From NCBI GenBank assembly GCA_003990765.1, contig RBNJ01000248.1, positions 1-35,546 of the forward strand: DNA of 35,546 nucleotides, read 5' to 3'. The DNA is from Jimgerdemannia flammicorona. Taxonomy: Eukaryota. Position numbers and translations under genes: made by a program. Of this stretch, positions 10,762 through 35,382 are shown piece after piece (position 1 is the first letter of the stretch; each line of letters starts with the position of its first letter). The notes under the pieces were generated by a model, which did not search any database, was not told the origin of the DNA, and saw only the letters and a program-made list of their open reading frames with translations.

Positions 10762-12072
10762 TCAGGCTCGACGATCTTGTATCCGATGCTTGCATCCTTC
10801 ACGTAAGGTCACGGCAGGGTACACTTTGTCGGATAGATGGTTCCGGGCTGTCCCGTAATTGATTCCACGGATCGAAAGGGCACATGTATAGTTATTTAGG
10901 TTTAAATGCATGGTTATAACATCGGCATTTTTTAATACTTTTGCCGTATTTGAATTGTCCTCTTCTATAATACGTATATTGGTTGTCGTTGTAGGATTGG
11001 AATGTCCATGTATGAGGCCGCTTTGTCATGTAACTATCAAAATATGTGAATTACTAACAATCGTACATATGCCGGTGTTGTCATACGATCCAATGGATTC
11101 AACGACAATGTTCCATTCGCATAGACCGTTGTGACCTTCGTCCCGGGGTCGAAAAGCCGTGCTGTCCGTGATGAAACCCCGGATAGAATTTCCACAACCT
11201 GGCCATCTTCCGATACGATCGATCCCACTGGAAATTGACTTTGTGCGCGCCTCTACACGGCTTGCGGACGGATGACCCGTAGGGCATACGGTATTCTTGC
11301 AGGCGTAATGGCAAAACACTATGTAGTGTGGAGAAGTCTCCACAAACGTGTCAACTGCCTCCGTGAGGGTCTTGAGTCGATGCGGGCAAATGAGCGTGAG
11401 GTCAAAGTGGCGCGTGACGCACCATCTCCTAGCCGGACCGTGCCCTCGCACCCCGCAACCATATCTGCAGAACAGCATGACGCTCCGAAGTCGACGGTGC
11501 ATTCTTGTTGCGTTCCCAGACCCAGTCGGCGACGCACAGCAATAGGTCGTGCTCGGGCGTGGCAAAGATTGATGCCTCGGTGAGGAGCAGCTCGAGGACT
11601 TCCTCGGATAGGTCGGCCAGCTCGCCGATGGCGAATAGTACGTCGTAGCGGTCTTCATTGGTTTCGCTCCATGGAATAGTGACGACGGCTTCGCTGAGAA
11701 GCGAAGAGGCGGTACCAAAATCAGCGAGGTTGTGCATCATCTTTATGAGCTTTGGGAAGGAGGAAAAAATTTGATGTGCGGTATATATCCACCGCAACGA
11801 AAATATTAATGTTACCGATGTTTCGGTGTGAATGAATCTGGGTACAATGAGATGGGAGAAATCCTATGTTTCCATACAGCATTACCTTGAAGACTGAGCA
11901 TCTTTTAAGAGATCATACGAAATTAGGTATCATAAAAAGCGAAGGACATCACTAAACTGTATAAGAGAATCGAAATCGGACAAACCTTAAAGCCAGTGCA
12001 GCACGGCACGGCGCAGGCGATGGTCACATCGTGATAGGATGTCGTCAAACAGCTGTCAGATTGCTCGACCAT
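10762..12072 (-). pseudogene. Decayed tandem paralog of the BTB-SPRY gene
   Basis: Collinear similarity to 7686-9180 (e.g. PEHDLLLCVADWVW, HFDLTLICPHRLKTL, GLCEWNIVVESIG) split over several frames with multiple deletions. Same ATG context, same intron (11985-11902), and shared upstream (~12085-12160 vs ~9230-9297) and downstream flanks. Confidence 0.9.
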
Positions 12073-13543: not shown

Positions 13544-13960
13544 CAGAATCGATTCATTGTCCAAATTGCAATCCATAAAATTTCACATATGGGAAAGTGC
13601 TTTCCCATAGTAACATATTTTTCAGGATTAGCAGCTGGCTGTTGCCAAAAACAAAATAAAGTAAAATCATACATCCCATCAGAATCGATTCGTTCAAATT
13701 TCAATCCATAAAATTTCACATATGGGAAAGCGCTTTCCCATAGTAACATATCTTTCAGAATTAACAGCTGGCTGTTGTCAAAAAGACCAACAAAATAAAA
13801 TAAAATAAAATAGAGTAAAATCATATATCTCATCAGAATCGATTCGTTGTTCAAATTGCAATCCATACAATTTCACATATGGGAAAGTGCTTTCCCATAG
13901 TAACATATTTTTCAGAATTAACAGCTGGCTATTGCCAAAAAGGCCGGAAAATAAAATAAA
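13544..13960. repeat. Three tandem ~130-155-bp units, each with a 22-bp palindrome TATGGGAAAG-(T/C)G-CTTTCCCATA
   Basis: Units start at 13544, 13680 and 13834 with CAGAATCGATTC. Palindromes at 13588-13609, 13721-13742 and 13878-13899. Confidence 0.9.
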
Positions 13961-14129
13961 AAGGTTCAACATATATGTAAATAAGCAGGGATCGGAAAGA
14001 GGCAAAAAATACCTAAGCGAAATAATGCATGTCTATTCTTTGCAATAAGCGATGTCATTTACATGACATGTGAGCCTTGAGAATATACCAAAAATCCTTG
14101 TCAACAAAAAAATAAAATAAAATAAAATT

Positions 14130-15533
14130 CTACGCATGCGGTTTATCCGCGTTAGGATCATCATTTCTCGGCGAAGACGAACTAGCATTATTGTTCCTCG
14201 GCGACACGTTATCGCTATCCCCCGTCGACACGACGTTCTGCCATGCCCCGCCCACATTCCGGATCGTTGAGATGGGCGGCGGCAATGGCGGCTGTTGGGG
14301 TCTCTGAGTGTGTGGCATCATTTTTTGCGGATAATAGGCGGGGGTGTAGAGCTGTTGAGTCTGATAAACGTCGGCGCCGCCTTCGGCCGGGTATGGCATG
14401 AAGAATTGCTGTTGCTGCGGGTACGCGAAGGGGTTATCGGAGGGATACGGCGTCGTAGCGTTCGGTTGCGGTGGGTGGTACAAAGTAGATTGGTTGTTGT
14501 GTGGGGCGGACGTCGTGCTGATGGCGTTGGGTGAGTTACTTTTGAGCGTTGGGGTGTGGGGGATTGGCGAACGGTCCGGTTTCAATCCGGTGCTGGCGAG
14601 GTTCACGGTTGGCGAGACGACGGGTGAGTTCCCCGAGAGGTTGGGATCTATCGTGGGCGGTAGGTAGCTCGCAGAATCCGTCTCCTGTAGGTGATAATTA
14701 TTGGTATTGATATTTTTGTTTCTATTTCGGACGATGATGGCGAACACCAGAGCCGCGACCGCAAGGACACCAGTTCCACCAACCACAATTCCGGCGATGA
14801 CAGCCGTGGAAAGGGGACTACCTGTTCCTTCGCTAACGGCGGCCACGGACGGTTTGACGGTAGCGATTGGCATGACGGTAACGCCGATTGGCGCTGCGAC
14901 AACCGTTCGTAGGGCCCCCACGCCGCACTGGATATTGCCCATTTTAAAATGGGCGAGGATCATGTATTGATCGGGCTGCGATAGCGAGAAGTCGCCAGAC
15001 TCCCACGTCTGACCAGGGAATCCATACAGGGAGGGCGACCCCGTAACGAGAATGCTTCCCGAGGAACTATTTTGAGGTGGGATCCAAGGCAGACATTCGC
15101 TCCTGTTCATGAATGTCATGGAGCAGAAGTGCCAGTTGAGGTGGGGAACGCAGCAAGTGGCGTTGGAGATAGGCGGGATACAAGCGGCTTGTGTCGGGTT
15201 CTGCGGGTTGACATGCCTTAGGCACAGCTGGCTGAACTCTACGGACGCGGGGTCGGGCAGGAAGCCATTGTTGCTAGTGTAAAAGTTGTTCTGAAGGTTC
15301 AGCCGGACGGTGGAATTGATGGGTACATTGGCAGTGAGCGTGGCGGGAAGCGGGTTGACGAAGCCAAAATCGATCCCCGCGATTGACACGAGGGAGGGGG
15401 TCGTCGCGTCGCCGTACGAGGGAACGGTGAAGCAGGCGACGGTGTTCTCGTCGCCAAGGATCCAGGGAGCCGTTTGGGCAATTGCGGGCTGGGCGCACAG
15501 AAAGAGGAAGAGCAGGAATGTGGTAATGACCAT
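14130..15533 (-). CDS. Uncharacterised type I single-pass membrane protein (467 aa)
   Basis: Intact intronless ORF: signal peptide (MVITTFLLFLFLCAQPAIA), Cys-containing ectodomain, S/T/A stalk, TM helix (AVIAGIVVGGTGVLAVAALVFAIIV) followed by basic RNRNK, and a P/Q/Y/S-rich tail. Confidence 0.85.
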   Translation of the reverse strand: MVITTFLLFLFLCAQPAIAQTAPWILGDENTVACFTVPSYGDATTPSLVSIAGIDFGFVNPLPATLTANVPINSTVRLNLQNNFYTSNNGFLPDPASVEFSQLCLRHVNPQNPTQAACIPPISNATCCVPHLNWHFCSMTFMNRSECLPWIPPQNSSSGSILVTGSPSLYGFPGQTWESGDFSLSQPDQYMILAHFKMGNIQCGVGALRTVVAAPIGVTVMPIATVKPSVAAVSEGTGSPLSTAVIAGIVVGGTGVLAVAALVFAIIVRNRNKNINTNNYHLQETDSASYLPPTIDPNLSGNSPVVSPTVNLASTGLKPDRSPIPHTPTLKSNSPNAISTTSAPHNNQSTLYHPPQPNATTPYPSDNPFAYPQQQQFFMPYPAEGGADVYQTQQLYTPAYYPQKMMPHTQRPQQPPLPPPISTIRNVGGAWQNVVSTGDSDNVSPRNNNASSSSPRNDDPNADKPHA

Positions 15534-17238
15534 TTTTCCTGTTCCTGGTATTACTTGGGTGGCTGTACAGAACTGTGTTGGTAATGCGATTCAATTAGCC
15601 AGGATGTGGTATATATGGATTCCCTTGGAGAGCTGCGCCTCTGGCACTGTTTGATGAATTGCGCTGACGCATTTTTTTTTTTCTTTTTCATTTTCTTTTT
15701 TCTTTTTCTTTTTGCTGCGCGAATACTTTGTGATGAACATTCCATTTGTTCCATTGCAAGCTATTTAAGATGATCTATTGATTCGATTCATCTCCTATTT
15801 TTGGTACTGCGCCATCATTTCACACACGTGGCTCCATCTGTGACTTCGCTCAGCCACACTTATACTGGGTAGAATATACATTTTCGAGGACATGAAATCC
15901 GTAATATATTGAGAATATAATTATGAGCATGATTGGATCCAGCTCTGGGTGGAAGTGACGTGTAGGTGGCGGAACGAAGGAGTACTGGCGCTCACGCTCT
16001 ATCAAAGATTTTCTTACTGAACGAGCCTTGGCAATATGGTAACGGCGCCTTCCCAGCCGGCAACAAGCGCATTACGATGATCAGATAGGCAGGCAGTTGT
16101 AAATGCCCCCCCTTCCTTCCCTGCTCGTACAAATAATGTGGTAGTTGGATAAATGGGTTAGAAAGGAGCGGCGAGTTCCAAAACAGGCGACCCCGGCAAG
16201 GTCTCGGACTTACCGGCGGGGACTGTCGCACAGCGAATTGGATCGACGCCTTCTCTGCTTTAAAAGGGACAATGCATGTAAACACTCCCGCGTTTCTCGG
16301 CATTGGTCACTCGCAAGTGGGATACGGTTTTAGTCATTGAACACACTGTGTTAAGGGTATGACGGGGTTTGAATTCCTTGACAGAAGGCCCTTCCTGTAT
16401 TTAGCGCTCATGTGGTCGTGGCATCCGTCACTACTCCCAAACCAGAATTAAAGCCGAGCAAACAAATCATTGGTGGGAATGAAAAAGGAGGTGAAATTGG
16501 TCACAAGTATGTGCATGCGACCTATTGTACGATGTATTGGAAATGGTCAGAAAAACAAAAGGGGGAGAGCAAGAACTAGCGACGGCCTTTCTAGAATCAA
16601 AGGTCACTAAAGGGGTTCGCAGTGAGCGAATAAGGGACTTGACGAAAGTGAATTTCGGACGGATATGCTGGTGGGCGTCTCATTATAGATGACAATTGAG
16701 CCTGTTGTCATATTTTTATATTTTTGTACCTAATGCTGTCTGTGAGATGGCGATGCTCGGGGGGGGTTTTTTTTTTTTCCTTTCGGATATGCTGTTCCTG
16801 ATGTTTCGACAAAAAAACCGTCCGCTGCGGCCGATTTGGCCAGGGTGGCCGATTTTCATGAACGCCAGCCATAAAACCTAAGGCCGAGGAGGGGGTTAAT
16901 GCATTATTTGCGACTTGCATAGGATAACTGTAATCGCACCCTTGCATCGACATGGCACCCTACCATTAATTTTTGAAGCGTCAAAAGCTATAGAGTGGTC
17001 GCGAGATTTCCACACGCTGAAGACCCCTTGACGATAACCACGATAAGGACGACCTACGTGTCCAGCGAAATAATATATATATATATATACATGTTTGGTG
17101 GCTTGTAAGTCTGGTAAAACCAATCAAGTATCAATGAACCCAAACGACTTAAAGAATAGGCACCTCTAGCATGTGACCCCCATTACCAGTTTCACCGCCC
17201 TGATAACGTTTCCCCACTTGACCCCACCAACAATCCGA

Positions 17239-18891
17239 TCACGTCCCTCCACCGCCAGCCAAAGGCTTTCTCCCATACGCGAAATCGATATAGATATACG
17301 TCTTATGGCTCGAAAACTCGTCCGCCGCGTCGTCCACCAGCTTGTCGTACTCCTCCTCGGTAATCCCCATAGCCATCAACATGTGCGGTTTCATCGCCCC
17401 GAAGAAGCTCTCCGCATTCTATTTAAGAAAGTGCGGAAATGTTAGAATGCGGAGGAAATGTCTATAACTCGGCTTTAATATGGCACACTTAGGTGTATGT
17501 ACCTTCCGCGACGCCTCGGCGATCTCGGGTGGGCCCCATCCGAAGGGTAGCGAGCACTGGTCTTGGATAACGTCCTCGAGTGAGGCGGCTCGGAGCATGT
17601 GACCAAAGTTAGAGATATAGCGCGGATCAACGTCACGCAAGTTCATCATTTCGTGGGCTGCGCAAAGGTGTTGAGGAAGTGAAAGATCAGGGTGTTGTTT
17701 TCGTCTGAGATGCCCAAGGGATGATGCGCAGGAGCCTCTGTTTACCTTTGCTGTAGTACTCGGTAGTCCGTGGGCCGCCGCTATGTGGCCAGCCCTCTGA
17801 GTCGACTTTATAGAATGAAAGGAAAGAAAAGAAAGAAAAAGAGAGAGAGAGAGAGAGACAGAGAGAGAGAGGACCAATTAATCAATTCTATTATTTCAGG
17901 CGTATTCAACCACCTAAGCATATTCCTATACAATCCCACCCATACTCACTCAGCTCGACCCACCCTCCAGGTTTAGTGACCCTCACGAGCTCCTTGATGA
18001 CAGTGGGCCACTCGTGAACCCGAAAACTCGCCGTCTGGAATCGCTGGAAGGCGTAGTCAAACGTGTTGTCCTCGAACGGAAGGCCCTTGAGCGTGTCGCC
18101 TATCTGGAAGCGACAGTTTTCTAGCTCCAGTGGTAGAGATATCTTGTGTATGCCCACGATGTCTGTGCCAGTGAATTCACTTTGCGGGTAGGCTTGCGCC
18201 ATTTCCTGATGGGAAGGAAGGTTTACGGATGACTTGAGTTGGTTGTGATTCGCTATATAGCAGCACCTGTGCTTGTGAAGCTTTGTCAAACCGTGGTGCG
18301 TTTCGCTAGTAATGGTAAAATCAAACCTACAATTGACCAGACTCCGGTTCCGCAACTAATTAAAACATCCACATTGGTCATAATTTATTACGCGTCTTAG
18401 CAAATTAACTTAATTCTCATAAAACGGGTGGAATACCTACCCAGCGTCCAGAACCTTGATACCGCGCTTAAGATGCTTTCGCACCGGCGCCATTTGGTTT
18501 CTAAATAAACGGGATCATGAACAACGGGCATTGTTTTGCGAGCGAACTCACACGAAATAGTTGTTGACTTCCCTACGTACCCGTTTAAAACAAACCTAAG
18601 GCCAAACCCCAAGCCAAAAGTTAATCAGTCAGCAAGCACAATTGCCGTCCGTAACAAACCACCAGCGTAATCATCTAACACTCACCGTATCAAATAATGC
18701 TGCAGATTCAAGCGGCTCGCCTCGGAATCATCGCATGGCAACGGGTACGCGCTGTTCCCCTCCATCTTGAACCCCCTTCCGCTCTGCCACTTAAATCCAG
18801 CAGGAAGATCAGACACCACCGGTTGTGGTTGCACCCAGTCGCGGTCGGACGTGCCTCGCTTCCTACGAACTTTGGAAATCGGCTGGCCCAT
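17239..18891 (-). CDS. Class I SAM-dependent methyltransferase (fungal LaeA-like/Methyltransf_25 type), 318 aa, 8 exons
   Basis: Exons 18891-18686, 18595-18581, 18500-18441, 18355-18331, 18205-17950, 17805-17746, 17657-17503, 17418-17239, all with GT..AG introns, sum to 957 nt in frame. Motifs: YPLPCD.SEASRLNLQHYL, VLDAG|CGTGVWS (motif I), FTGTDI, GLPFEDNTFDY, ELVRVTKPGGWVEL, AYGRKP. Confidence 0.92.
17841..17871. repeat. (GA)n microsatellite in methyltransferase intron 5
   Basis: Directly visible GA run with one CA interruption. Confidence 0.9.
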
Positions 18892-20004
18892 CGATGGTGA
18901 AAGAAACGAAGTGAACACCGCATGATGCAACCTCTGTTTGGCCTATTATGTATGGGCGGATAAAAACCGGAGAATTGAGAACCCCGAATTGCGACTCTTG
19001 GAATTTCGGGCCGTGGCGCGGCCGAACAGTAGTGCGACGTTGTCGGAGTACGTGGGAACAGCTTTAGATCGGATCGGTTGACAGCACTGACCACGAGGAG
19101 GCTCCTAAACCAACCCGTCATGTGCGCTATACCACCAAGTGTCGATCGTGGTTGGTGGCGTAACGTGAGAGCTTACGCTTTTGGAAGAAATACCAGTCTC
19201 TCGGGCACGCCACCCTCATGACAAACGACACCGGGTGGAACCCGCATATGCCCGTTGAGAGCAGGGTCCGAAGTGGCCCCTGTTCGACAGGTTTTATATA
19301 AGCTCTCAAAGGGAGGAAAACAGAGAAAACAACCCACTTTGTTGCCAGCATCCCTATGCACTACACGGTGTTATACTCCTTATCGAGGTTATTCATTAAG
19401 CGGAAGCCACGAATACGGAATTCCCAACCTGAGAACCAAACGTATGATGCCCGCGAGTATATACGCTGAATGATCCTTAACTGCGATGGGCCGAAATCGT
19501 GTGCCCATATTGGAAACATACCATGCAGCGGAGACAGGGTCCGAGCTATTAGTTTAATAAAGACATCTTGAGGTTGGTGGAGAGCCACCCACACCGCAAC
19601 CCAATCAGCTATATTATATATAATCCAGGACAGCATCAAATCACCATAATAATAGACACAAATAGATTTGGACCACCAAAACTGCCAGACCATATATATC
19701 AACCCAGACAAATAAGGTTTTACTGGAAAATTATGTCGTGCAATGGAACACAGGTTTCACTGGGAAATTCAATGACGTAATACACAATTCAAAGATTGCA
19801 AGAAGACCAAGGCATGATAACAAAAAGTTGTATCTCGCTGCTTGCGGATTCAGGAAAAGAATTACACTTGTACTCGCCAAATAGTGACGTGGTTTTTATT
19901 TTATTTTGTTTTTACGTTCAGCCGCCAACATTCATTTTGATGTAACATAAAAAGAGGCAACCAAGGGATCGCCGGCAGTAATCCTACTGGAAAGCTTCCC
20001 TAGG

Positions 20005-21735: not shown

Positions 21736-22218
21736 GTATAGTTCTTCCTTCAAATATGTCAGATTCTCTTTAAGGTATATCTCTTAGACTAACTCAAGTT
21801 TGTTATAAGCAAGTTCTTATTAGAGTGTCTTTCTAAGGTCTTATAGTCCTCAAACTTCTTATCTTTAAACTGTCTTGTTATCTCTTAGATTGCTTGCAAG
21901 GAAGTGTATATAAGTAAACTTGACTGACTTTATTTCAGAAAAAATAAGAAGGATATTTATATAAAATATAATTCAATAATTACTAAGATATAAAGCTAAA
22001 TATAAATTCCAATAATCAAATAAAATGCTGAAATATAGAAAACTGCCAAGTTTCAGGGTCAGTATGGATGGTTGCACAGATTTAAGATACTGGTATAATT
22101 TTGGTAATATAGAAAAATAGTGCTGGAAAAATTCTAAGTTACAAGGTCAGAATATTAGTAGAGGAATAGCTGTTATATAAGAAAAGGATGCTGGCATAAT
22201 TTAGTGTAACTAAGAGAC

Positions 22219-23451
22219 TTAGAGCAGAATATTCAGAACTACAAGAGCTTTATCCTCATCATTACTATTCTCAAAAAAGATAAGGTCTACAAATGTTTCA
22301 GTCTTATTGCATAGGTTATATATTTTGTATGCTTCATATCCCTTTGTCTGTAGATAAGATTGTCTTTTAAAATCATTTAGCAGACAAATTAAAGTTTGAA
22401 AAAAATGATTTTTTGAAACATTGTTTTTCTGTTAAAAAAATATCTCAATTTGTTTAAAAACAAATTTTTTTTTTTTTGTAAAATTTTTACCAAAGGTAGA
22501 ATTATTATATAAAAAATTATTGGTAAATTTTTTTTTTAAAAGCTATTATGATTTTAAAAGTTATAAACTTTTAAAATCTTATCTCTAAATATAGGTGCAA
22601 AACAGTCAAAGAGATATATTATGCAGAATGACATCATTGCTAATGATGTCATCACATTTGGCAGTAGTGGGAACAAGGAGGTCTGGGGCTCTCCAGTCTA
22701 TGAGGTTCTCTTCTACAAAATAGGGAACAAATGTGGAGTCTTGGGGAGGTCTAACCTAGATACTTGGGCCTTGGAATACTGAGATCAATCCTTGTAGAAA
22801 TTGATCTGGGTTGTCCTGGAGAATAGGATGTCAGAAGTCTTCTACTTCATTACTATTGAGAGTGATAGTGGACTGAGCTTCTGTAGCTACCCTGGCTTCT
22901 AGTACATTGATATGGCAGGCTGACAGATCTCTAAAATCTGAGACTCTAACATACTCCAAGTTGGGGATCAACCATGATGCATACCTGAAGATCTGATGAA
23001 TCTTCTTAGCTGTCTTTATTTTATATATATCTATAGGAATGGTATCTTATAACTCTTAGAGGCTGGTCTGTGGGAACTCCTGGCAGAGAAGGTTTCCTAT
23101 TTCATACTCCTGTTATATTTAGAGGTATTCAGTAGCAATGGTGATTCTTGTTTCCATCTTATGGTAGTAGAGAATAAAGTGATAAAAATCTGCAGTACCC
23201 AGGTTGAAACTAGGAGTCCTTCTTATATGGGTCCTCATGGCTCTTCTGATGTCTTGGAACATCTTTTCTTCAACTGAGGTACCTTGGTGATTCCTTGACC
23301 TTGAGGTTTGGCAAGCAGCAGGCATTTCATTTGTGGTAAGTCTTTGAGCTATTTTGGAATTAGTGGGTCTTATTGAGTTGCTACTACTGTGATTCCTTGA
23401 TCCTTTTTTTATATTTCTCAAGATGCCTAAACTGTGGTCACAATGACTCAC
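22219..23451 (-). pseudogene. LTR-encoded ORF of unknown function, 3' LTR copy (MITE-interrupted)
   Basis: Same frame as 30737-29781. All but one of its stop codons are CAA/CAG/TGG in the other LTR. Confidence 0.65.
22340..22613. mobile_element. 274-bp MITE, consensus termini CCCTTTGACTG...CAGTCAAAG(A/G)G, AT target duplication
   Basis: Absent from the homologous site in the other LTR (~29898). Comparison with the empty site gives a 2-bp AT TSD. Second copy at 30936-31207. Confidence 0.88.
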
Positions 23452-23578
23452 AGTTAGTCATCATTACTCATCTCATAGCCTGAGTTATGCCATATGATCT
23501 TCTTGTGTTCTGATCTGGTGGCTTGCAAGAAAAGGCTGTCTCTTGTGCTGATGTCATTATTCTGAGATTACTATTACA

Positions 23579-23619
23579 TCTTTCTCCTGAATAAGGATCT
23601 TCTTGAATATCCTTATTCA
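23579..23619 (-). promoter_or_regulatory. Polypurine tract (AGGAGAAAGA) preceded by an 11-bp-stem hairpin
   Basis: PPT 23588-23579 abuts the LTR TG. Inverted repeat TGAATAAGGAT (23588-23598) / ATCCTTATTCA (23609-23619). Confidence 0.8.
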
Positions 23620-23944
23620 TTGGTCTAGTTTTAAAATATTTGCTGATCCCATAACCTCTGGCAAGGAGTCAAAAAGTGGTATTTATGGGCTGGCATCTTC
23701 CTTATGTATTTTGGTATAATGGTGAAGGGTTACTCCCTTCATATAGAGCAAGGGCCTGATTCTGATCTTGATCAATCAGTTGATGGTTTGAACTTCTCTG
23801 GCTTCAAAAGTCTCACAGATGAGTAGTTGCTGGTGTCATATTCCTTAGAAAATGGTCCAGACAGATAGCCTGCTGGTCATGGAATATGCTGTTGTGATTC
23901 ACAGACTAGAACCTTGTGGGCAGTCATCACATTTTACTTCTCTT

Positions 23945-26900
23945 ATATAGATTTATGATACTTCTTAAGTCTATTCCTATGTACTATAGTAGGTAATATA
24001 GTCTCTGAGATTTTTCTAAGCCAGAAGGTAGTTCTCTTGATATCTTACATGTAGAAGGGTCCTTCCCATTTGGGCTCCAGTTTTCATGATCATGAGGCTT
24101 CTATTATATTTTGATACAGTAGGACCTTTTCTCTGATTTAGATGAGTTCTAGGATCTTGTGATTCTTTTCTACATTCTTCCTTATCAGTACTTGTGACTT
24201 GATGATGTAATCTTCAGCCTTCTTTCTGATTTGGTATAGCCTCCATATTTCTGCATTAACTTATCTCCAAGTTAGATCTTGATTTATGGCTGAGGTTTTA
24301 TCAAAATCTTCTTCTCTGAAGAGCAGTTCTCTTGAGGTAAAGTGTGTGCTCTGTGACCATATATCTCATAGAACAGAGAGGGCAGTTGAGAGATAGTTAT
24401 CCCAATTCTTGTACATATGTCTCTGAGATCTTTGCCAGGATGTTCTTGAGGGTTTTATTGGTTCTTTCTGTTTGTCTATTTCCTTAAGGGTGGTACATGG
24501 TGGTCTTGATGTACTGAATCTTGTATTTCTGATATATTATCTTATAGAATCTATTGATAAATTCTGTGCCATGGTCTGTAGTGATTTGCCTTGGTATCTT
24601 ATAGTAGCAGATGATTTCTTGGTACAGGAAGTCAGCTATAGAGAGGGCATTGGCTTCTTGTAATACTCCTACTTCTATCCATTTGGTAAAGAGATCTACA
24701 ATAACTATAATATAGTAGTTTCCTGATAGTATTACTAGTAGTAGCCCAATAATATCCATTGTGATGTGGTAGAAGGGGATAGGCTCAATTCTTAATGACT
24801 CAGATATTTGGTCTTACTGATCTTGTTTCTATTTTTGGCACTTATTATACCCTTTGACAAATTGACACAAGTCTTTTTCTATTTTGGGCCACTACATAGT
24901 TCTTCTTGCCTTGTTGTATATATTGGTTCCTCCTAGATATCCTTGTTCATATACTTCCTTCATTACTTGATACTTCTTGTGTTTGGATATTATAAGCTTT
25001 TCTCCTTTTCTGAGTGTGGTGTTATCTAGTTCAAACTGTTTCTAAGTCTGGTTGATGATGGTGATTATCTAGGGTTCAAGGTAGTTGGGCATCTTTTGCT
25101 GCCTAAGATAGCTGATTAATCTATAGTATAACTCCTTATCATATTAAATAGTCTTGATAGGGGTGTTTTAGAGTATTCTTGAGAGTGCATCAGCATTGAT
25201 ATTGGTTCTCCCTGAGTGGTGCTTAACAGTACAATCATACTCTTGCAGCCTGTAGATCCATCTGGTATATATTCCTTTTGGAGTTCAGAGTGTGGAACAG
25301 CTAGGCAAGAGCAGAATAGTCTGTTTAAATAGTAAAGTATTTTCTGACTAGATAGTAGTAGAACTTGTCTACTGCCCAAACTACTGCTAAGCATTTAAGC
25401 TTGTATGACTTGTAGTTCTGTTCTGCTCTATGGGTACCTCAGTTTAGATAGGAGATAACATATTTATATTTATCTTTCTTCTGAGCTAGGACTGCTCCAA
25501 GTCCTATAGTACTTACATCTATCTGTAGGATGAACTCTAGGTTCCAATCTGGTCTTCTGAGGATAAGTGCTTGGGTTAATCTGGTCTTGAGTCTATTGAA
25601 GATTTCTTGGCATTTCTTGGTCTATTTAAATTTGGTCTCCTTCTTCAGTAGCTCGTAGATAGGTGCTGCAATATTAGAGTATTCTTTGATGAATCTTCTG
25701 TAGTAGGAGGCCAGTCCAAGGAAGGCATGGACTTCTGTAGTTATTCTGGGTCTTGGATAGACTGCAACAGCCTCAATATTTATGGAGTCTATATGTATTC
25801 TAGTCTGGTTAATGAGATATCCTAGATAGGTAATTTTCTGAGCTGCAAACTTATATTTCTTGGGCTTGATGTAGAGGCCATGCTTCTTGAGCTTCTTGAG
25901 AGCTAGCTATATGTGGTTGATATATTCCTGTATAGTATTACTGAAGATGATCACATTATCAATATAGATAAAGAGCCATTTTCTAATCTCATTACTGAAG
26001 ACTCTGTTCATCATTCACTGAAAACTTGCTGGGGTATTGTACATTCCAAATAGCATTCACAGGTAGATATAGGTGGCATTAGGTGTGATAAAGGCTAATT
26101 TCTCACTGGTATCTTGAGTGAGACCAATCTGATAGAAGCCTGAGAATAGATCCAAGGTGGTGTAGTATTTGGCTTTACTTCCAAGAGTAGTAAGAATTTC
26201 TTGAATATTTGGCAAGGGCTATCTATCCTTCTTGGTAATTGTATTGAGCTTCCTATAGTCAATGCAGAGTCTTGGTACAAACTCTCCAGGTTTACTTTCT
26301 TTCTTTGGAGTAAGAACAATAGGTGAAGCCCAGAGAATGATAGCTTGCTTGATGATTCTGACTTCTTCCATTTCCTTGAGTTCTGCTCACAGCCATTCTC
26401 TGTAGGCAGGTGGTATAGGTCTGGCTTTCTGGTAGATGGGCTTGGTATTACTAGTGTCAACTTTATGATAGTACTTAGGTTCTTGATTGTGGATTTCCCA
26501 AAATCTGTGGCAAGTACTTCTTCATTCTGATGCAGGATCTTGAGAAGTTGTTCTTTTAGGGGAAAGTTTTCTCCAATGATATATATGTACTTATTCTGAT
26601 CCTTGTCTTTCTTGTACTCAAGTTTAGTAATCTTGGTGGCAGCATAGGCTCCTCTTCCAGTATATCCAAAGCCTTATTCTCCTCTCTTAGTCTTGATGAG
26701 TTTGATGGCTTCAGTGATCTTGGGCTTCTTGATTTTATAGATTAGCATCTGGTCAATTCTGTCATGCTTCTTGACTTTGAATGGGGTGGTGGGTTGTGAT
26801 TTCTGACTATGAGGAAGATCTTGCCAGTGTAATTAGGGTCAATTACTCCTCCTTCAACTGAGATTTTGCTTTTGGTCAGACTGCTCCTGATCTTGATAAT

Positions 26901-29162
26901 TCCAGTATAGTTCTCTAGCAGCTTGACTCCAATTCCAGTACCAAGTAGAGTAGTAGTCTATGGTTCAAGAGTAGCATCTTGAATGCTGGCAAGGTTTATT
27001 TCTATAGCTTCTTCAGTCTTGTATTCTGGGATCTTGGCTTCAGGGTGAAACTTCTTAACCTTGAGGGTAATATCTAGTTCTTGTTTCTCCTCATCATCAC
27101 TGTCAGCTTATAGCTCTGGGGGCTGGTCATCTTCTTTGGCTTTCCTTTTTGCTTCAGCAGCTTCTTACTTATACTTCTGTTGGTGGATTTTCCTGACTTC
27201 ACTGATATAGGACCAGCAGTCATTCAGGTATTCAGAGCAGTACATTCTAGTACCATGGGGGTATCTTTCTTGAGAGACATAGCCATCAATGATCTTATTG
27301 TACTACTGCTTATCTGTGAGCTTAGGTGTCTTGTTCTTATTCTTATTCACCAAGTACATGAAGACTTCTGTGTCCTCTTTATCTTCTTCCTCTATATCTG
27401 GTAGAACTCCTTTGTGGATATTGATAGAGACTTGTACCTTTCTTCCTCTATAGTTGATCTGTATCTTCTGGGCATTGAGATCAATGATGGCCTTGGTCTT
27501 GTGAAGCCATTGGTTGCCAATGAGGATATCATAGTTGGTGGTGCTTATAATAATTACATCTACTGAGATGATAGCTCCTCCTATCTTAATAGAGACTTCT
27601 CAGATTTTGCTAAGGAGGATAGCTTATATATCATCTACTGTGACATAGATCATCTTGATAGACTTTTCAATATCCCAGCCTAGGCAGTCAATTGCCTTCT
27701 TGCTTATGAGGCATTCTCTAGCACTGGTATCAATGATGGCATCAAAGATACAATCTTTGATCTGATATAGAGTATAGGCTGATGTCTTGTACTGGTCTTC
27801 AGATTCTTTACCTGAGTCTTCTTGATCATCTTCTTATACATTGTGAGCTTCTACAATCTTGTACTCTTAATTCTTGGTATTAGTTGCAAGTTCTACTCTT
27901 AACTGCTATCTGAAGGCAGAAACTTCAGCTAGCTGTCCAAAAGTAACATTGATCTTCTGTTTCTTGAGATTCTTGTAGATATTATATTAGTGGATCTTGG
28001 TCTTATATAGCTTCTGTTTCTTCTTGCTTTCACTTTCTCCTGAGACTGAAGTAGTGTCTTCAATAATTTTACAGATAGCTTTCTCTAACTCTATGTCTTG
28101 ATCAATCTCCTCAGATTGGGTCTTGCTTTGAATAGTGATAGTTGGGGTCTTCTTTGGTCTTCCAACTGGCTTACTGTTGCTCTTCTTATCATAGGGCTTG
28201 GACTAGGTTCTGGTACCTTCAGTAGTAGGGTAGAATTTAAGCTTCTCATAGTATTCTTTATTATCAGTATTACCAATCTCCTTGATGACTACTGTATTGG
28301 TTTGTTCTCTGGTTCTACTAGTATTGCTTAGTTGGGCTTTGCATCTTGTTTCAGTTATGCAATTCTTTGCATAGTGGTCTTTTTCTCTATATCTGAAGTA
28401 TATGATATTATATTCTTCTATAACAGCTACAAATCTCTATACTGGTCTCTTGTTGGTGCTTCAGACTTCTCTAATAACATCACTAAGGTGTGCAGTCATC
28501 TCAGCAAACTACTTGGCAAGTTCCTCTACTGGGTCAACTTTAGTTGCCTTGGGGATAGGTGGAAATGGTTGTCTGTTTATAACTGTGGTGGGTATGATAC
28601 TAGTTGACTTTGATAACTCTATCTTGATGCTAGTTATTTTCTCTATTGAGTGTTTGGTGGGGTGTCTGGTAGTCTAATATCTCTATGCAAAGACCACTTT
28701 CTGATCAAGAGTCAGTGCAGCTGGGGTAGACCAGATTGCTAGGACAATTTCAGGGTGAACTCCTTTGAGAAAGGTTGAATCTGCTATTTGTTCCTTGAGG
28801 TGGTCATTACAGCCAGCCAAGACAATCTGGTGATAGATTCAAGTATAGAATGAGTTGGGATCTTCACTGAGTCTCTGGCAGATAGTATTGAGTTATTACT
28901 TGAGAGCTTGCTTGATCTCTTCAGTATAGTATGTTGTTCTGAGAAAGACCTTCATGTTGGCAAGTTTGGCTGTATCAGCATTAGCAATGATGGCTATATT
29001 GAACTTGTCTCTGATAAGTCCTCTGAGGCTGACTGGTAGAAGGGCCAATTGTGCATCTATATTAAGAGCTTATATAGCAGCAAATTGTTCAAAGTCTTCA
29101 ATGAAGATCAGGATTGACTCTTCAGTAGTATATCTATAGAATATGGGGGGATATATTTCCAT
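23945..29162 (-). pseudogene. gag-pol of the Gypsy element (many stops and some frameshifts)
   Basis: Gag starts MEIYPPIF (ATG 29162). Knuckle (C)FR(C).EK.HYAKNC ~28350-28400. Protease AIIDTSA (27720-27740). RT FIYIDN (=YIDD, 25955-25966). RNase H FILQ.D.S..GLGAVLAQ (~25485-25535). Integrase VDLFTKWIE, TDHG.EF, YHP, WEGPF (~24055-24070). Confidence 0.9.
26650..27068 (-). pseudogene. dut: Trimeric dUTPase domain between protease and RT
   Basis: All five motifs readable on the minus strand: LKVKKFHPEAKIPEYKTEEAIEINLAS (I, AGxDL eroded by transitions), YTGIIKIRSSL (II), EGGVIDPNYTGKI (III), KKHDRIDQMLI (IV), TKRGE*GFGYTG (V). Confidence 0.9.
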
Positions 29163-29212
29163 CTTATCTTGAATTCTTACAGAGGTGACTCTTGTAGTCA
29201 GGGTAGTTATTG

Positions 29213-29282
29213 TGGTAGTTGTTCATTTTTTAGCTTAAAAGTGAGGAATTCATCTTGAATCACCAGCTAATGGGTACCAAGT
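29213..29282 (-). promoter_or_regulatory. Primer-binding site and conserved leader of the Gypsy element
   Basis: ACT then TGGTACCCATTAGC (TGG at 29279) directly after the LTR-terminal CA. A near-identical 69-nt block lies at 32491-32559. Confidence 0.85.
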
Positions 29283-30864
29283 TGTCACATAGTTGTCACT
29301 GAGTCCTTCAAATATATCAGATTCTCTTTAAGGTATGTATATCTCTTAGACTAACTTAAGTTTGTTATAATCAAGTTCTTATTAGAGTGTCTTCCCAAGA
29401 TCTTATAATCCTCAAACTTCTTATCTTTAAACTGTTTTATTATCTCTTAGATTACTTACAAGAAAGTATATATAAGTGAACTTAACTGACTTTATTTCAG
29501 AGGAAATAAGAAGGGTATTTATATAAAATATAATTCAATGGTTACTAAGATATAAAGCTAAATATAAATTCCAATAACCAAATAAAATGCTAGAATACAG
29601 AAAACTACCAAGTTTCAGGGTTGATACAGATAGTTGTATAGATTCAAGATGCTGGTATAATTTTGGTAATATAGGAAAATAGTGCTGGAATAATTCTGAG
29701 TTACAAGGTCAGAATGCCAGTAGAGGAATAGCTGTTACACAGAAAAAGGATGCTGGTATAATTCAGTATAACTAAGAGACTTAGAGTAGAATGTTTAGGA
29801 CCATAGAGGCTTCATCCTCATCATCACTGTCCTCAAAGGAGATGAGGTCTGCAAACATTTCAGTCTTATCATATAGGTCATGTATTTTGTATACTTCACA
29901 TATATTGTGCAGAATAATATCATTGCTGATGATGTCATCATATTTAGTGGCAGTGAGAATAAGGAGGTCTGGGGCTCTCTAGTCTATGAGGTTCTCTTCT
30001 ACAAAATAGAGAACAAATGTGGGGTCTTGGAGAGGTCTAACCTGGATACTTGGGCCTTGGAATACTGAGATCAATCCTTGCAGAAATTGATCTGGGTTGT
30101 TCTGGAGGATGGGATACCAGAAGTCTTCTACTTCATTACTATTGAGGGTAATAGTGAACTGGGCTTCTGTAGCCACCCTGACTTCTAGTGCATTGATATA
30201 GTGGACTGACAGATCTCTGAAATCTGAGACTCTAACATACTCCAAGTTGGGGATTGACCATGGTGCATACCTGAAGATCTGATGAATCTTCTTAGCTATC
30301 CTTATTTCATATATATCTATAGGAATGGCATCTTGTAACTCTTGGGGGCTGGCCTGTGGGAACTCCTAGTAGAGAAGATTTCCTATTTCATACTCCTACT
30401 ATATTTGGAGACATTCAGTAGTAATGGTGATCCTTATTTCCATCTTATAGTGGTAGAGGATAAAGTGATAAGGATCTGCAGTACTCAGGTTAAGGCTAGG
30501 AGTTCTTCTTGTATAGGTCCTTATAGCTCTTCTGATGTCTTGGAACATCCTTTCTTTGACTGAGGTGTCTTGGTAATTCCTTGACCTTGAGGTTTGGTGA
30601 GCAGTAGATATTTCATTTGTGATAAGTCTTTGAGCTATTTTGGGATTAGTGGGTCTTATTGAGTTGCTGCTACTACAGTTCCTTGATCCTTCTTTTATAT
30701 TTCTCAAGATACCTGAACTATGGTCACAATAACTCATAGTTGGTTATCATTACTCATCTTATAGCCTAAGTCATGCTGTATGATCTTCTTGTATTCTGAT
30801 CTGGTAGCTTGCAAGGAAAGGCTGTCTCTTGTACTGATATCATCATTCTGAGATCACTGTTATA
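29283..30864 (-). repeat. 5' LTR (1582 bp)
   Basis: Minus strand T(A/G)TAACAG...ATGTGACA, followed by the PBS. Direct repeat of 21746-23578. Confidence 0.92.
29781..30737 (-). pseudogene. LTR-encoded ORF of unknown function (~318 codons), 5' LTR copy
   Basis: Track ORFs 30399-30737 and 29979-30245 are in one frame that continues to TAA at 29783-29781. It has only four internal TAGs, three of which are CAG/CAG/TGG in the other LTR. Confidence 0.7.
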
Positions 30865-30935
30865 ATAGCTAAAGTTGAGATATATAGAATACTAAGTGAA
30901 TTCTTCTTAGTATTACTAAAAGGTCTAACTTATAT

Positions 30936-31207
30936 CTCTTTGATTATAGATAAGATTGTCTTTTAAAATCATTTAGCAGACAAATTAAGATTTGAAAAAA
31001 ATGATTTTTTGAAACATTGTTTTTCTGTTAAAAATATATCTCAATTTGTTTAAAAACAAATTTTTTTTTTTTTATAAAATTTTTACCAAAGATAAAATTA
31101 TTATATAAAAATTATTAGTAAATTTTTTTTTAAAAGCTATTATGATTTTAAAAGTTATAAACTTTTAAAATATTGCCTTTAAATATAGATGCAAAACAGT
31201 CAAAGAG
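30936..31207. mobile_element. Second copy of the ~273-bp AT-target MITE
   Basis: Aligns end to end with 22340-22613 and is flanked by AT on both sides. Confidence 0.88.
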
Positions 31208-32552
31208 ATACAATAGATCCATATTTTTCAAAAATCTTAAATAGTCTAATATAGTAGAGTCTAAGCTTTTTTTTAAGTTTATATTATCTAGAGTTAAATA
31301 TTAGGTACTAAGTAATACTTGTTCTCCTTTTTCATAAGTAACTTCTCTTTTATTTTTATCAATATATACTACTTATATTCTTTGTACCTCCATAAGAGTA
31401 TTTCATACTTACTAAATGTTATTTTATATAATATCAGTAATTTCTTATATAGCTGATACTATGGTTTGAGTGGCAACTATAGAAGTTTGTAGATATTGTC
31501 CATAGTTCAGATAAAATAATATCATTTTGATACTTATACTTAAGCTATTATTATATATAAATTTGGCTAAAATCAGTTTATTATCTCACTTATTTTATTT
31601 ATAGTTACAATAGATACTAAGTATCTACTTTAGAGTTTGATTGATTCTTTCTGTCTAACTATCTATTTGTTGATAATATACTGTAAATATTTTTAGTTAT
31701 ACTCCTAGACTCTTGAAGAGTACTTATCAAAAGTTATTTATAAATTTTGTATCTTAGTCTAAGATAATTGCTAATAGTAGTCTATAAAGATAGAATATAT
31801 TATTAATAAATAACTATATTATTTCTAGTACTATTACAGTAGTAGTTATTGTAATAAAGTAAGTTTACTTACTAAGGTAATTAATAAAAACAATAATTAT
31901 ACCTCTTTCTTTCTTAGTTTTTGACAACTAGATAATAAAATCCATTCTGATATAGTTTGAATTTTAGATAGGAATTAATGGTAGCTATAGTATGTATACC
32001 AGCTAGTGCCTGGTTGCTAAACTTATATCTTTGGTAGATATAGTAGAATATAATATAATTCTTGATATTAAATATCATTTTTGATCAGTAAAAGTTTTGG
32101 ATGATATATTGGTATATCTTGTTAAATCTTATATATTGTGATGTATGGTATGAAATAGAAACAGGAAATAGACATTTGATCATAGTATCTGAATCCAATT
32201 TCCGATTTAGTATAGTCTTTTACTGCGGACACTGCATCTAAAACATTATCAGTGAAACTCTTGTTACTTTCACAAATTTCAGATAGGATTTCACATGAGA
32301 TTCTACCTGAGAATTTCATATGAAAAGACTTAATACTTAGCCACATATTTAGTAGCAGAATTAGCGCACAAATCTGTATAAATAACTCAGTATTTTAGAG
32401 TGAATAAACCTCAGTCAGAATGAGTCAGATCAAACCAGTCCAATTCCAAAATCCATCCAACTTACTAAATTCTGTGTCCACTACATTACAACTTGGTGCC
32501 CATTGGCTAGTGATTCAAGATGAATCCTCACTTTTAAGCTGAAAAACGAACA

Positions 32553-32661
32553 ACCACCAGACCGCCAGACCGCCAGACCACCAGACCGCCAGACCGCCAG
32601 ACCGCCAGACCGCCAGACCGCCAGACTGCCAGACCGCCAGACTGCCAGACCACCAGACTGC
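32553..32661 (+). repeat. 8-bp tandem repeat (CCGCCAGA)n, ~13 copies
   Basis: Directly visible. Variants CCACCAGA and CTGCCAGA are CpG transitions. Confidence 0.92.
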
Positions 32662-32681
32662 CATATAGACCACCATATTGC

Positions 32682-33147
32682 ACATGGTGTTTGTCTGCAC
32701 CATCTGCTGTTAATTACTTGTTCTGGTTGTCAGCCTCATTTCTGTGAACTGTCGTCAATATTGAACAATAGATGCTCTGCAAAGGACCGCATCATTGAGT
32801 TAATAGCCGGGTCGCTCCTTAGTTCGAGGGACAATATTACAAGAATTAATCGCCGAAAAATGCCGAACAAACCATCATGCCGAATAGACCGCTGTACGGA
32901 CCACAAAGAAAACTGCTGTACGAACTATTGCTACCCGAATTTTGAAGACATTGTTTGTCTGCGCTATCTGCTGTTAATTGGTTATTCCGGTTGTCAGCCT
33001 CGTTTCTGTGAACTATCGTCGGTATTGAACAATAGACGCTCTGCAAAGGACCGCATCGTTAAGTTAATAGCCGGGTCGCTCCTTAGTTCGAGAGACAACG
33101 TTACAAGAATTAATCGCTGAAAAATGCCGAACGAACCACCATGCGAA
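32682..33147 (+). repeat. ~200-bp internal direct duplication (32682-32884 vs 32948-33147)
   Basis: Both copies share TGTTTGTCTGC...CTCTGCAAAGGACCGCATC...GCCGGGTCGCTCCTTAGTTCGAG...AAAAATGCCGAAC. Confidence 0.88.
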
Positions 33148-35382
33148 ACGCCACCACCGCCCGACTTTTGAAGAATGTCCCGCGACATACGAATGGACCG
33201 CCATCGAGAATAGAACATACGAACTGTCGTCTGACTTTTGATGACATACGAACGGAACGGACCACCCAGGAGAATTAAAAGACGTTGCCCGAGTTAATTA
33301 TTTGAAGAATGCCACCCTACTTTTGACCACAGAATTGAAGACGTTGTATATGAACTGCCCGAGTGAAGAATACCGTCATCCGACTTTTGACGACATATGA
33401 ATGCCTATGACATACAAACATCTCCCGACATACGAATGGACTGCCACGGAGAGCTGAAGACATCATATATGAACCATTCGAGTTAATTATTTGAAGAATG
33501 CTGCCCGACATACGAACGCCTATGACATCCTGGAGAATTTGAAGACGAGCCGCCACCCGATTTTTGAAGACCCTGTCACCCGAACCGTCACCCGAAACCG
33601 CTGTCCGAATTAATTATTTGAAGACTTTTGAAACCTCGAATAACATTTTAACAATTGCCTGGATATATCATAAATATGTCCATGTAGGGGGAACAAATAT
33701 ATAAACATTGCAATGTAAGAATTTGAATAGGTATTTTTGTGTCAAAAATAACCTATTCAGGGGGAAGATGTGACGTATGGTATGAAATAGAAACAGGAAA
33801 TAGACATTTGATCGTAGTATCTGAATCCAATTTCCGATTTAGTATAGTCTTTTACTGCAGACACTGCATCTAAAACATTATCAGTGAAACTCTTGTTACT
33901 TTCACGAATTTCAGATAGGATTTCACATGAGATTCTACCTGAGAATTTCATATGAAAAGACTTAATACTTAGCCACATATTTAGTAGCAGAATTAGTGCA
34001 CAAATCTGTATAAATAACTCAGTATTTTAGAGTGAATAAACCTCAGTCAGAACAAGTCAGATCAAATCAGTCCAATTCCAAAATCTATCCAACTTACTAA
34101 ATTCCGTGTCCACTATGTTACAATATCTAGCTATAGATATATCATATAGTTCTTATGGGATTTATAAGTAGATAGAGGTATTAGAGATCTAAATTCTTAT
34201 ATTATTAAGTTATAGATCTTCTTTATAATGTGTTTCCTTTTTTGAGGATTTATTTAGCAATTTCTTATATATTGATATCCTTGGTATACTCTTTCTTAAC
34301 TTCTTTAAAAGACTGGTGATAATATTGCTAATTGCAGTAAGATCATTCTTCTGAGTACTCTAAGAGAGTATATTAGCTATTTTATTCTTAGTTCTAGTAA
34401 TATACTTGATTTCATTATCAAAGAGTATAAGGATCTACATCTATCAGATCTGTCTTTCTATAAGAATTAGCTATATCTGGATATATCAGAGGTCTTGATA
34501 ATTTGTCCATAAGGTAAATTTTTTGTTAAAGAGAAAATATCTTTATATTTTATAGAGATCAGATGATAGTGAAGAGTTCCTTATCTTATATAATATAGTT
34601 TCTTTTATATTTATTGAGTTTCAAAGATAGGTAGATAACAGAGTATTTATATTGAGTCAGAACAGCTCTAATGGTAATATTTGAAGTATTATTAGTATTT
34701 ATAAAGAGTTTTATTAAATCAGAACTAATTAAAATTAGTATATTAGTCAGTATTCTCTTAAGAGTATTCATGACTATAGTGTATCCTTCTGTTTATTCAT
34801 TTTTGACATTAACTCCTATTCTGATGAGACTTGTGAGTAGAAAGGCAATTATGGAGAATTTTTGAATAAATCTTTTATAATATCCTACTAGTCTATTGAA
34901 TCCTTATAAAAACTCAAGAGTCTTCAGAATAAGTTAATTATAGATTGTTTGGATCTTCTTAGGATTGATAAAAATACTATTTTCTGAGATAATGTATTCT
35001 ATATATTTGATTTTCTTCTTGAAGAAGTAGTATTTCTTCCTTTTTGCTAAGAGTTTGTATTTATGAAGTATGTCAAAAATCATTTATAAATATTATTAAT
35101 AGATGATATACCAGAATATCATCCAGATAGACCAGAATAAATATTTTAAGATATTTATAAAAGATATTGTTCATCAGTATTTGAAAGATTACTGATATAT
35201 TAGTAAGGTCAAATAGTATTATACAGAATTCATTATATCCAAATCTTATTTAAAAGGCTATTTTGGAGATATCTTCTTTTTTGATATAAATTTAGTAATA
35301 TTTAGATATATATAAGATTGATAAGTGAAAAGGTCTTAGCCTTATATACTTAATTAAGTAGTTTATCAATTTATAGAAGTAT

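Follow-up and report, generated by a model that had tools for sequence, protein, structure and literature searches.

A Ty3/Gypsy element and the reading frame in its terminal repeats

The 35,546-nt contig RBNJ01000248.1 of Jimgerdemannia flammicorona (assembly GCA_003990765.1), referred to here in its whole length as the window, carries a Ty3/Gypsy retrotransposon, and each long terminal repeat (LTR) of this element holds a degraded copy of the same reading frame (Table 1). The comparisons reported below show that the LTR frame is a real protein-coding gene of a small, previously unnamed family, the evolution of which has been governed by purifying selection. Self-comparison of the window revealed two direct repeats on the minus strand, ~7.3 kb apart. 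In the region between them, Pfam matches followed one another on the minus strand in the order RVP_2 (residues 520-617), dUTPase (755-837), RVT_1 (1011-1162), RT_RNaseH_2 (1228-1325), Integrase_H2C2 (1440-1493) and rve (1508-1600). The carrier is a Ty3/Gypsy (Metaviridae) LTR retrotransposon, with the pol domain order of that group. Its dUTPase domain (26790-27040, minus strand; Pfam E-value 2e-9) lies between the protease and the reverse transcriptase, and a frameshift divides it over two frames.

The 5′ LTR terminates in ...ACTATGTGACA, and its opening TG reads TA owing to a G>A change. We moved the end of this LTR from 29304 to 29283, because the LTR end, the primer-binding site and the leader are homologous to those of a small element at 32138-34121. 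The 3′ LTR appears to have lost its final bases. A clean target-site duplication was not found at the element ends; the candidate pair, GCTAT and ACTAT, holds only if a few bases were deleted from the 3′ LTR at its end. The 3′ LTR is also interrupted by an AT-rich insertion resembling a miniature inverted-repeat transposable element (MITE), of about 274-276 nt, which has terminal inverted repeats of 10 nt and shows a duplication of 2 bp (AT). Another copy of it, 94% identical, occupies ~30932-31210, about 70 nt outside the 5′ LTR. Sequences closely related to the retrotransposon are present in a soil-metagenome run, in which 4587 contig pieces with at least 80% likeness were spread over the whole element. 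One contig of this run connects 30862 to 23577, which fits the start of the LTR and the junction expected at the 3′ LTR. The run lists 517 differences from the window, and its depth dips at 29652-29894.

Table 1. Coordinates of the Ty3/Gypsy element, the gene in its LTRs and associated features in the window
Feature	Position	Strand	Remarks
5′ LTR, Ty3/Gypsy element	29283..30864	-	1582 nt; from LTR-LTR alignment, end by homology to the small element
LTR 5′ end, putative upstream control region of P1	30730..30864	-	two TCAGAA-type motifs and two AP-1/Gcn4-like heptamers
First TATA-like box, ATATAAAAG	30692..30700	-	89 nt ahead of the start codon; proposed gene promoter P1
16-nt block directly 5′ of the start	30616..30631	-	identical in the 3′ LTR copy and in the related contig L001; coding residues shared ~46%
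LTR-borne gene, 5′ copy	29781..30611	-	276 codons + TAA; start mutated to ATA; internal stops at codons 113, 114, 124 and 253 (numbering of the earlier note)
TTATNCCAGCA-type motif (CCAGCA-type), four copies	29588..29764	-	between the gene stop and the second TATA box
Second TATA box TATATAAATA and AATAAA	29491..29525	-	29525-29516, then 29496-29491; proposed promoter P2 and poly(A) signal
Putative primer-binding site, TGGTACCCATTAGCTGGTG	29261..29279	-	TGG-initiated; 3 nt past the LTR end; same in the small element at 32495-32513
Internal region	23579..29282	-	gag, protease, dUTPase, reverse transcriptase, RNase H, integrase; many stops and frame changes
Polypurine tract, AGGAGAAAGA	23579..23588	-	abuts the 3′ LTR; similar tract before the right LTR of the small element
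3′ LTR	21746..23578	-	88% identity to the 5′ LTR; interrupted by a 276-nt insertion
LTR-borne gene, 3′ copy	22219..23325	-	ATG at 23325 kept; six internal stops; split by the insertion 22340-22615
MITE-like insertion	22340..22615	-	276 nt, in the 3′ LTR gene copy; terminal inverted repeats ATCTCTTTGA
Small non-autonomous LTR element	32138-34121	+	355-bp LTRs, 96.6% identical; 1.28-kb non-coding interior

The element has been heavily hypermutated. Alignment of the two LTRs over 1559 bases showed 183 transitions and 3 transversions. The substitutions are of the C>T or G>A kind, with rates of 0.22 at CpA, 0.15 at CpC and 0.025 at CpT. Across the retrotransposon (21746-30864) the CpG count is zero, as against a CpG observed/expected ratio of 1.05 in the host DNA at 14000-20000. 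The contigs of the soil run differ from the window mainly by A>G and T>C, which marks the copy in the window as the mutated one. Moreover, since the LTRs are identical at integration, the hypermutation must have come after insertion. Two alternative processes might be responsible, one resembling repeat-induced point mutation (RIP), the other deamination of methylated cytosines. The preference of classical Neurospora RIP differs from the strong share of CpG and CpC and the avoidance of CpT seen here. When sorted by codon position of the LTR frame, the LTR-LTR differences were spread evenly (39/29/39), with no bias, as expected of post-insertion decay without selection.

An earlier note on this DNA, made from the letters alone, had drawn attention to a minus-strand frame of ~318 codons hidden in both LTRs. 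Its account of the stop codons was borne out by our codon-by-codon comparison of the LTRs. There are four internal stops in the 5′ LTR and six in the 3′ LTR, and they are complementary, the other copy reading CAA, CAG or TGG, at all sites but codon 113, where a TAG is paired with a TAA; the terminal TAA is common to both copies. In the 5′ LTR, the minus-strand reading of 29781-30737 has 319 codons, comprising the four internal stops and the terminal TAA. Every internal stop in either copy can be traced to a sense codon altered by C>T or G>A, and the homologues described below carry Trp, Gln or Arg at the stop sites of the window. All intact homologues have Trp at codon 113; the ancestral codon was therefore TGG, and each copy lost it by mutation within the preferred TG/CA context. 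After C/G restoration, made at the discordant sites of the two LTR copies only, the sense frame was open over 205 codons, whereas the other five frames were open over at most 74.

The length of ~318 codons and the start at 30737 did not hold. The ATG at 30737 is a product of mutation (G>A), because the 3′ copy reads GTG there; the real gene has 276 codons and starts at 30611. In this start codon column the 5′ LTR has ATA, and the 3′ LTR keeps ATG at 23325. All five homologous sequences that reach the N-terminus (P0002, L001/P0006, P0007, P0010 and P0012) open with Met-Pro at one alignment column, and tblastn matched residues 1-271 of P0002 over 30611-29784. The gene is on the gag-pol strand and lies wholly within the repeat 30864-29283, in both LTRs. 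Both copies in the window are dead through hypermutation after integration. In addition, the 3′ copy is broken by the MITE-like insertion after the base equivalent to 29902, an interruption that was absent from the earlier note.

Homologues, selection and properties of the protein

Relatives of the frame were sought in several ways. When the frame of the window was used as query, with stops written as X, three of the 334 candidates were hits, all of them intact proteins of 65-75% identity. Five clusters emerged at E ≤ 0.001 when a profile was run exhaustively against 1.84 billion cluster representatives, and a second profile search yielded 12 proteins at E ≤ 0.001 among 8000 scored candidates. 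We also scanned metagenome contigs for a peptide pattern, which is independent of gene calling, and one of the 86 matches was a relative; this contig, L001, is 1535 nt long and has an open frame of 291 codons. No relatives were present among the 268 pattern matches of a first metagenome scan or the 81 of a viral-contig scan. A set of 8000 scored candidates with lengths of 600-2000 residues held no fused or longer forms, although this negative carries little weight.

The sequences fall into four subfamilies: that of the window (P0001-5, 9, 11 and 13), P0006/L001, P0007, and P0010/8/12/14. Identity to the subfamily of the window falls as low as 27-30%. The open frames span 215-342 codons across the four subfamilies, and the intact homologues have no stops or frameshifts. 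Two of the sequences are decayed copies. P0012 differs from P0010 by Arg-to-Cys/His/Trp changes, the signature of CpG deamination, and the C-terminus of P0011 is unrelated beyond a conserved DLISF motif.

Compared with L001, the frame of the window had identities of 0.565, 0.677 and 0.415 by codon position (chi-square 34.7, p 3e-8), and the unrestored 5′ copy gave the same pattern. In frame, the proportions of synonymous (pS) and nonsynonymous (pN) differences from L001 were 0.74 and 0.37, and in the two shifted frames pS/pN was 0.49/0.44 and 0.37/0.46. Three observations had been named beforehand as ones that would speak against a gene, namely fixed stops or frameshifts, equal openness of the other frames, and a lack of codon-position bias, and we observed none of them. 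The proposal of an accessory protein-coding gene in the LTR is thus sustained by intact homologues, closed alternative frames and a codon-position bias against a related subfamily. One may still ask if the frame is open by chance, its stops having been explained away. Restoring C and G from two copies is indeed permissive, and one stop is common to both copies. Nevertheless, we give this explanation next to no probability, given the independent intact frames elsewhere, the shortness of the other five frames in the window, the codon-position bias, and the Trp that all homologues carry at the site of the shared stop.

The encoded protein can be divided into three parts. The N-terminal part of ~70 residues has a net charge of +1 to +7; in P0002 it contains 13 Lys and Arg in 70 residues (net +7), and in the other subfamilies its charge is +1 to +3. 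The core measures exactly 142 residues in each of three subfamilies. It is followed by a C-terminal tail of 59-126 residues, which is variable in sequence and length, strongly acidic (net charge -15 to -22) and rich in Phe, Trp and Leu. In a tile test for activation domains (39 residues, net charge ≤ -9 and at least seven Trp, Phe, Tyr or Leu, a cut-off from the literature on such domains), all five full-length proteins had passing tiles, which in four of the proteins were confined to the C-terminal tail. In P0002, 16 passing tiles start between residues 139 and 233, some of them in the core.

The C-terminal ~200 residues had been described as globular with an acidic tail. The acidic tail was confirmed, and the globular character was not: two AlphaFold2 models had low mean predicted local distance difference test (pLDDT) scores of 53 and 42, and in both the core consists mostly of helices, whereas the tail is modelled as disordered (pLDDT below 50). 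The stated absence of a signal peptide or transmembrane segment agrees with our data, as the top 19-residue hydropathy was 0.59-1.07 in the five full-length members. An Env- or Sag-like membrane protein was ruled out by these values, none of which exceeds 1.07.

Database comparisons of the protein gave no assignment. The frame of the window matched no Pfam family, and none of 16 family members had a Pfam match at E ≤ 0.01, the best being ATG5_HBR at E 0.028 in three members. No PDB sequence matched at E ≤ 1. The best ESM Atlas score, 0.83, was under the lead threshold, and the best Z of a wide VIA-align search, 3.6, was at noise level. Foldseek produced no match at E ≤ 0.001 in PDB or BFVD with the predicted structure, and no fold was recognised. 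A duplicated gag was considered and rejected (hhalign probability 0.1%).

Place of the gene in the repeat, promoter motifs and possible function

The C/G-restored LTR contains TATAAA at 30699 and 29523 only, and AATAAA at 29496 only. The second TATA box is 256 nt past the gene stop and ~24 nt ahead of AATAAA. The small element bears on how these motifs are to be read. It shares the LTR end (…CACTATGTTACA), the primer-binding site and the leader with the Gypsy element, its polypurine tract is near-identical, and its interior has internal tandem repeats (32688-33144). Judged by these similarities, it is a non-autonomous partner of the same family, probably mobilised by the Gypsy element. No coding region was found in its 355-bp LTRs, which nevertheless display TATAAATA, AATAAA and TCAGT in the order of the Gypsy LTR. 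Because the TATA-AATAAA-TCAGT module is kept in these gene-free short LTRs, the second module is indicated as the promoter and terminator of the element itself. We therefore place the gene, with reasonable though not high confidence, in the unique 3′ (U3) region, upstream of the TATA box and AATAAA module. The earlier suggestion that the gene explains the length of the LTR fits these observations, since the sister LTRs without the gene are those expected if the gene supplies most of the ~1.2 kb extra. We also considered whether the start of the LTR recurs, as an internal duplication, past the gene; the matches were of 8 nt only, at chance level.

The TATA box upstream of the gene could instead be the sole promoter of the element, so that the gene would lie in a long repeat (R) region or leader and form the first cistron of the genomic RNA. 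When the window is compared with L001, non-coding conservation is strongest in the TATA box, the motifs upstream of it and the block before the ATG, and the LTR start, ~165 nt upstream of the first TATA box, would give a U3 of normal size. Such an arrangement would, however, set the sole AATAAA ~1.2 kb into the 5′ R, where most transcripts would end before gag, and gag would have to be translated after an upstream frame of 276 codons. The sister short LTR, moreover, keeps the second TATA-AATAAA module and not the first. We consider a single promoter ahead of the gene improbable.

L001 has a TATA-like CTATAAAAG 80 nt ahead of its ATG, and a related GATCAGAACA-type motif upstream of that box. 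The region before the ATG of the window aligned with that of L001 over 29 nt (blastn, 89.7%, E 0.017). As to the AP-1/Gcn4-like heptamers of the window, one is intact in the 3′ copy only and the other is visible only after C/G restoration. A TATA box of its own 80-90 nt before the ATG and motifs shared across two subfamilies suggest that the gene is, on balance, a self-contained transcription unit. A splice acceptor before the ATG was dropped as a candidate, the branch-point-like motif not being conserved in L001.

Two copies of a 33-nt motif (GTCAGGCGGAAC...TCAGAACA...), 82% identical, were noted in L001 at 170-202 and 1481-1513, one upstream of the TATA box of the gene and the other ~230 nt past the gene stop. 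The motif may act as a common enhancer for two promoters, or it may mark where an adjacent repeat begins.

The small element is relevant also to the question of whether the gene serves the retrotransposon at all. It might be a passenger, a host or foreign gene captured in the LTR that is open only in young copies and has no role for the element. The family is without recognisable relatives, and the non-autonomous partner does without the gene in cis, as a passenger would allow. On the other hand, the frame, the start column and a constant length of the core have been retained in four subfamilies whose identity drops to 27-30%, and the codon-position bias is strong, which argues for long-term purifying selection while associated with the repeat. 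The 8000 scored candidates of 600-2000 residues included no longer host protein with this domain, although this is weak evidence. A mere passenger is, in our judgement, very improbable.

The overall explanation that we favour is a selected U3 gene with its own promoter and a product resembling a transactivator; we hold it tentatively, its chance being a little less than even. Transcripts of the gene would start at its own TATA box and end at the poly(A) signal of the LTR, so that every LTR, solo LTRs included, would be able to express it. The product would combine a mildly basic N-terminus and a conserved helical core with a rapidly evolving, disordered acidic tail having the make-up of an acidic activation domain. 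Acting on the repeated motifs between the gene and the element promoter, it would exert positive feedback on transcription of the element. In L001, five AGCCAC-type repeats occupy the position equivalent to that of the CCAGCA-type motifs of the window, and the motifs thus differ between the two, as do the proteins. By analogy with complex retroviruses, the product could be a nuclear regulator that works like their transactivators; of the functions considered we regard this as the likeliest, though its probability is well below even. Taken to its full extent, this analogy would make each LTR a complete cassette encoding a sequence-specific transactivator of the downstream element promoter, that is, Tas-like feedback in a non-vertebrate, probably fungal, retrotransposon; in this specific form the proposal is rather unlikely.

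The composition of the protein could also be read in terms of RNA. In that case, the product would be an export or packaging adaptor for the unspliced RNA of the element, like Rev, Rex, Rem or CERV. The N-terminus is rich in Arg in the subfamily of the window (13 Lys and Arg in 70 residues, net +7), the extreme C-terminus is rich in leucine and hydrophobic residues, and an LTR retrotransposon is known to have such an accessory regulator (PMC10309623). The N-terminal charge is, however, not conserved, being +1 to +3 in the other subfamilies, and Pfam, Foldseek and VIA-align gave no sequence or fold match to such proteins. The probability of a role in RNA handling is accordingly low.

The fate of the element brings to mind a factor of counter-defence, in line with the anti-silencing role that the earlier note had offered as its second idea, directed against cytosine methylation, repeat-induced mutation or small-RNA silencing, for instance by an acidic tail that sequesters a host factor. 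The element has been hit heavily by cytosine-to-thymine hypermutation, with no CpG left against a ratio of 1.05 in the host, its relatives show Arg-to-Cys/His/Trp decay (P0012 against P0010), and expression from every LTR would suit a suppressor acting in trans. Yet the protein has no similarity to silencing suppressors or methyltransferase inhibitors, nothing ties it to such pathways, and the copy in the window was mutated to death regardless. We think such a factor improbable.

Several points weigh against the transactivator-like reading and, in part, against the evidence for the gene itself. The homologues are few, lie on short environmental contigs (567-4848 nt) and come mostly from gene calls, which report open frames only. 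Residence in an LTR is seen for the element of the window alone, and the single junction contig of the soil run supports it weakly. The flanks of L001 did not match pol, any Pfam family or, beyond short motifs, the LTR of the window. Five nucleotides ahead of the start, the lineage of the window has an out-of-frame ATG (30616-30614 in the 5′ LTR, 23330-23328 in the 3′ LTR), absent in L001, which opens an overlapping frame of 31 codons and would lower translation. Motifs in mutated, AT-rich DNA, compared between two lineages only, are what the transcription start, the poly(A) site and splicing are deduced from. As regards the protein, the N-terminus of some subfamilies is only weakly basic (net +1 in P0007). 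The searches recognised neither a fold nor a family nor a DNA-binding domain, so the idea of a transactivator derives solely from composition, and acidic, aromatic-rich tails are also found in chaperones, adaptor-binding proteins and other disordered regions.

Elsewhere in the window, an intact 460-codon gene of BTB/SPRY type occupies 7686-9068 on the minus strand, and a degenerate duplicate of it, 73% identical and with a broken frame, lies ~3 kb away at 10645-11849. The clusters that the Atlas returned for the BTB/SPRY gene came from Nematoda, Haptophyta and Mucoromycota, so that this gene by itself does not decide the host group. Taken from the sequence alone, a fungal host is nevertheless likely, as the hypermutation is confined to repeats, Gypsy elements bearing a dUTPase have been described from fungi, and Mucoromycota is among those nearest clusters. 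At 2472-3396, where the GC content is 23-35%, lies an older and strongly decayed remnant of a Gypsy pol; it matches 24058-24989 with 68% identity. A unit of 124-133 nt occurs three times in tandem over 13544-13961, with 78-90% identity between the copies, just past the stop of a membrane-protein gene on the minus strand (14130-15590).

Comparison with known accessory genes of LTR retroelements

To our knowledge, very few retroviruses carry genes within the LTR. Accessory genes as such separate complex from simple retroviruses, and some of them, such as foamy virus tas (bel1) and primate lentiviral nef, lie at the 3′ end and overlap U3. Foamy virus tas is transcribed from an internal promoter of its own, and the C-terminus of Tas holds an acidic activation domain. 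As an accessory regulator of ~300 residues at or within U3, it is the closest match to the mode of action proposed for the LTR-borne gene. The two proteins have no sequence or fold similarity, however, and in the Gypsy element the whole gene lies in the LTR and is therefore duplicated.

The sag gene of mouse mammary tumour virus (MMTV), a vertebrate retrovirus, has ~320 codons in an LTR of ~1.3 kb and encodes a type II membrane glycoprotein. The location of the sag frame in the LTR is stated, for example, in the accessible part of PMC2118998. Both genes are sense-strand frames in an unusually long LTR and are present in both LTRs. In contrast to Sag, the protein described here has no hydrophobic segment and no Pfam match. 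Its carrier, unlike MMTV, is a retrotransposon without env, and the gene apparently has its own TATA box.

Accessory frames have also been reported for LTR retrotransposons. CERV of the Caenorhabditis elegans element Cer1, which is of Ty3/Gypsy type, is a novel accessory nuclear regulator beside gag and pol (PMC10309623). Its mRNA is spliced and derives from the internal region rather than the LTR, and no sequence relation to our protein was found. Plant LTR retrotransposons contain additional open reading frames (aORFs), often orphan, beside gag-pol in the internal region (PMC7264820, in part), and bdelloid rotifer elements have extra frames, the ORF3s, likewise in the internal region (PMC5408684, in part). 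Those frames either precede gag or follow pol ahead of the 3′ LTR, whereas the present gene is inside the repeat; the phrases "in the LTR" and "within the LTR" do not occur in the accessible text of PMC7264820.

Some fungal Gypsy elements likewise carry a dUTPase. According to the accessible part of PMC2864245, PosPlaTy3-5 of Postia placenta has a dUTPase between protease and reverse transcriptase, and Tmt1 of Tuber melanosporum is cited there as dUTPase-bearing. The dUTPase-carrying elements (Tmt1, PosPlaTy3 and those of Phanerochaete) resemble the present one in this respect, as judged by their description, and the passages concerned do not mention an LTR gene. Nor is one reported in the relevant passages of the crapaud paper. 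Full-text matches to "LTR ORF" were MMTV papers or concerned the ORFs of LTR elements. In full-text literature searches, from which many subscription papers were absent, we found no non-vertebrate LTR retrotransposon with a conserved, selected gene wholly inside the LTR.

Accessory genes in LTR retroelements are thus already known; what is new is the place of this one, its orphan protein family and its host group. Repeat masking and hypermutation conceal such LTR genes from annotation. The new family is nevertheless experimentally accessible, as the intact environmental homologues can be synthesised. If the proposed reading is true, the unusually long LTRs of this lineage are explained, the gene dose doubles with each insertion, and the gene survives in solo LTRs, which persist as dispersed, expressible copies of the regulator. 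Retrotransposons would then have evolved trans-acting regulators in the LTR independently of retroviruses.

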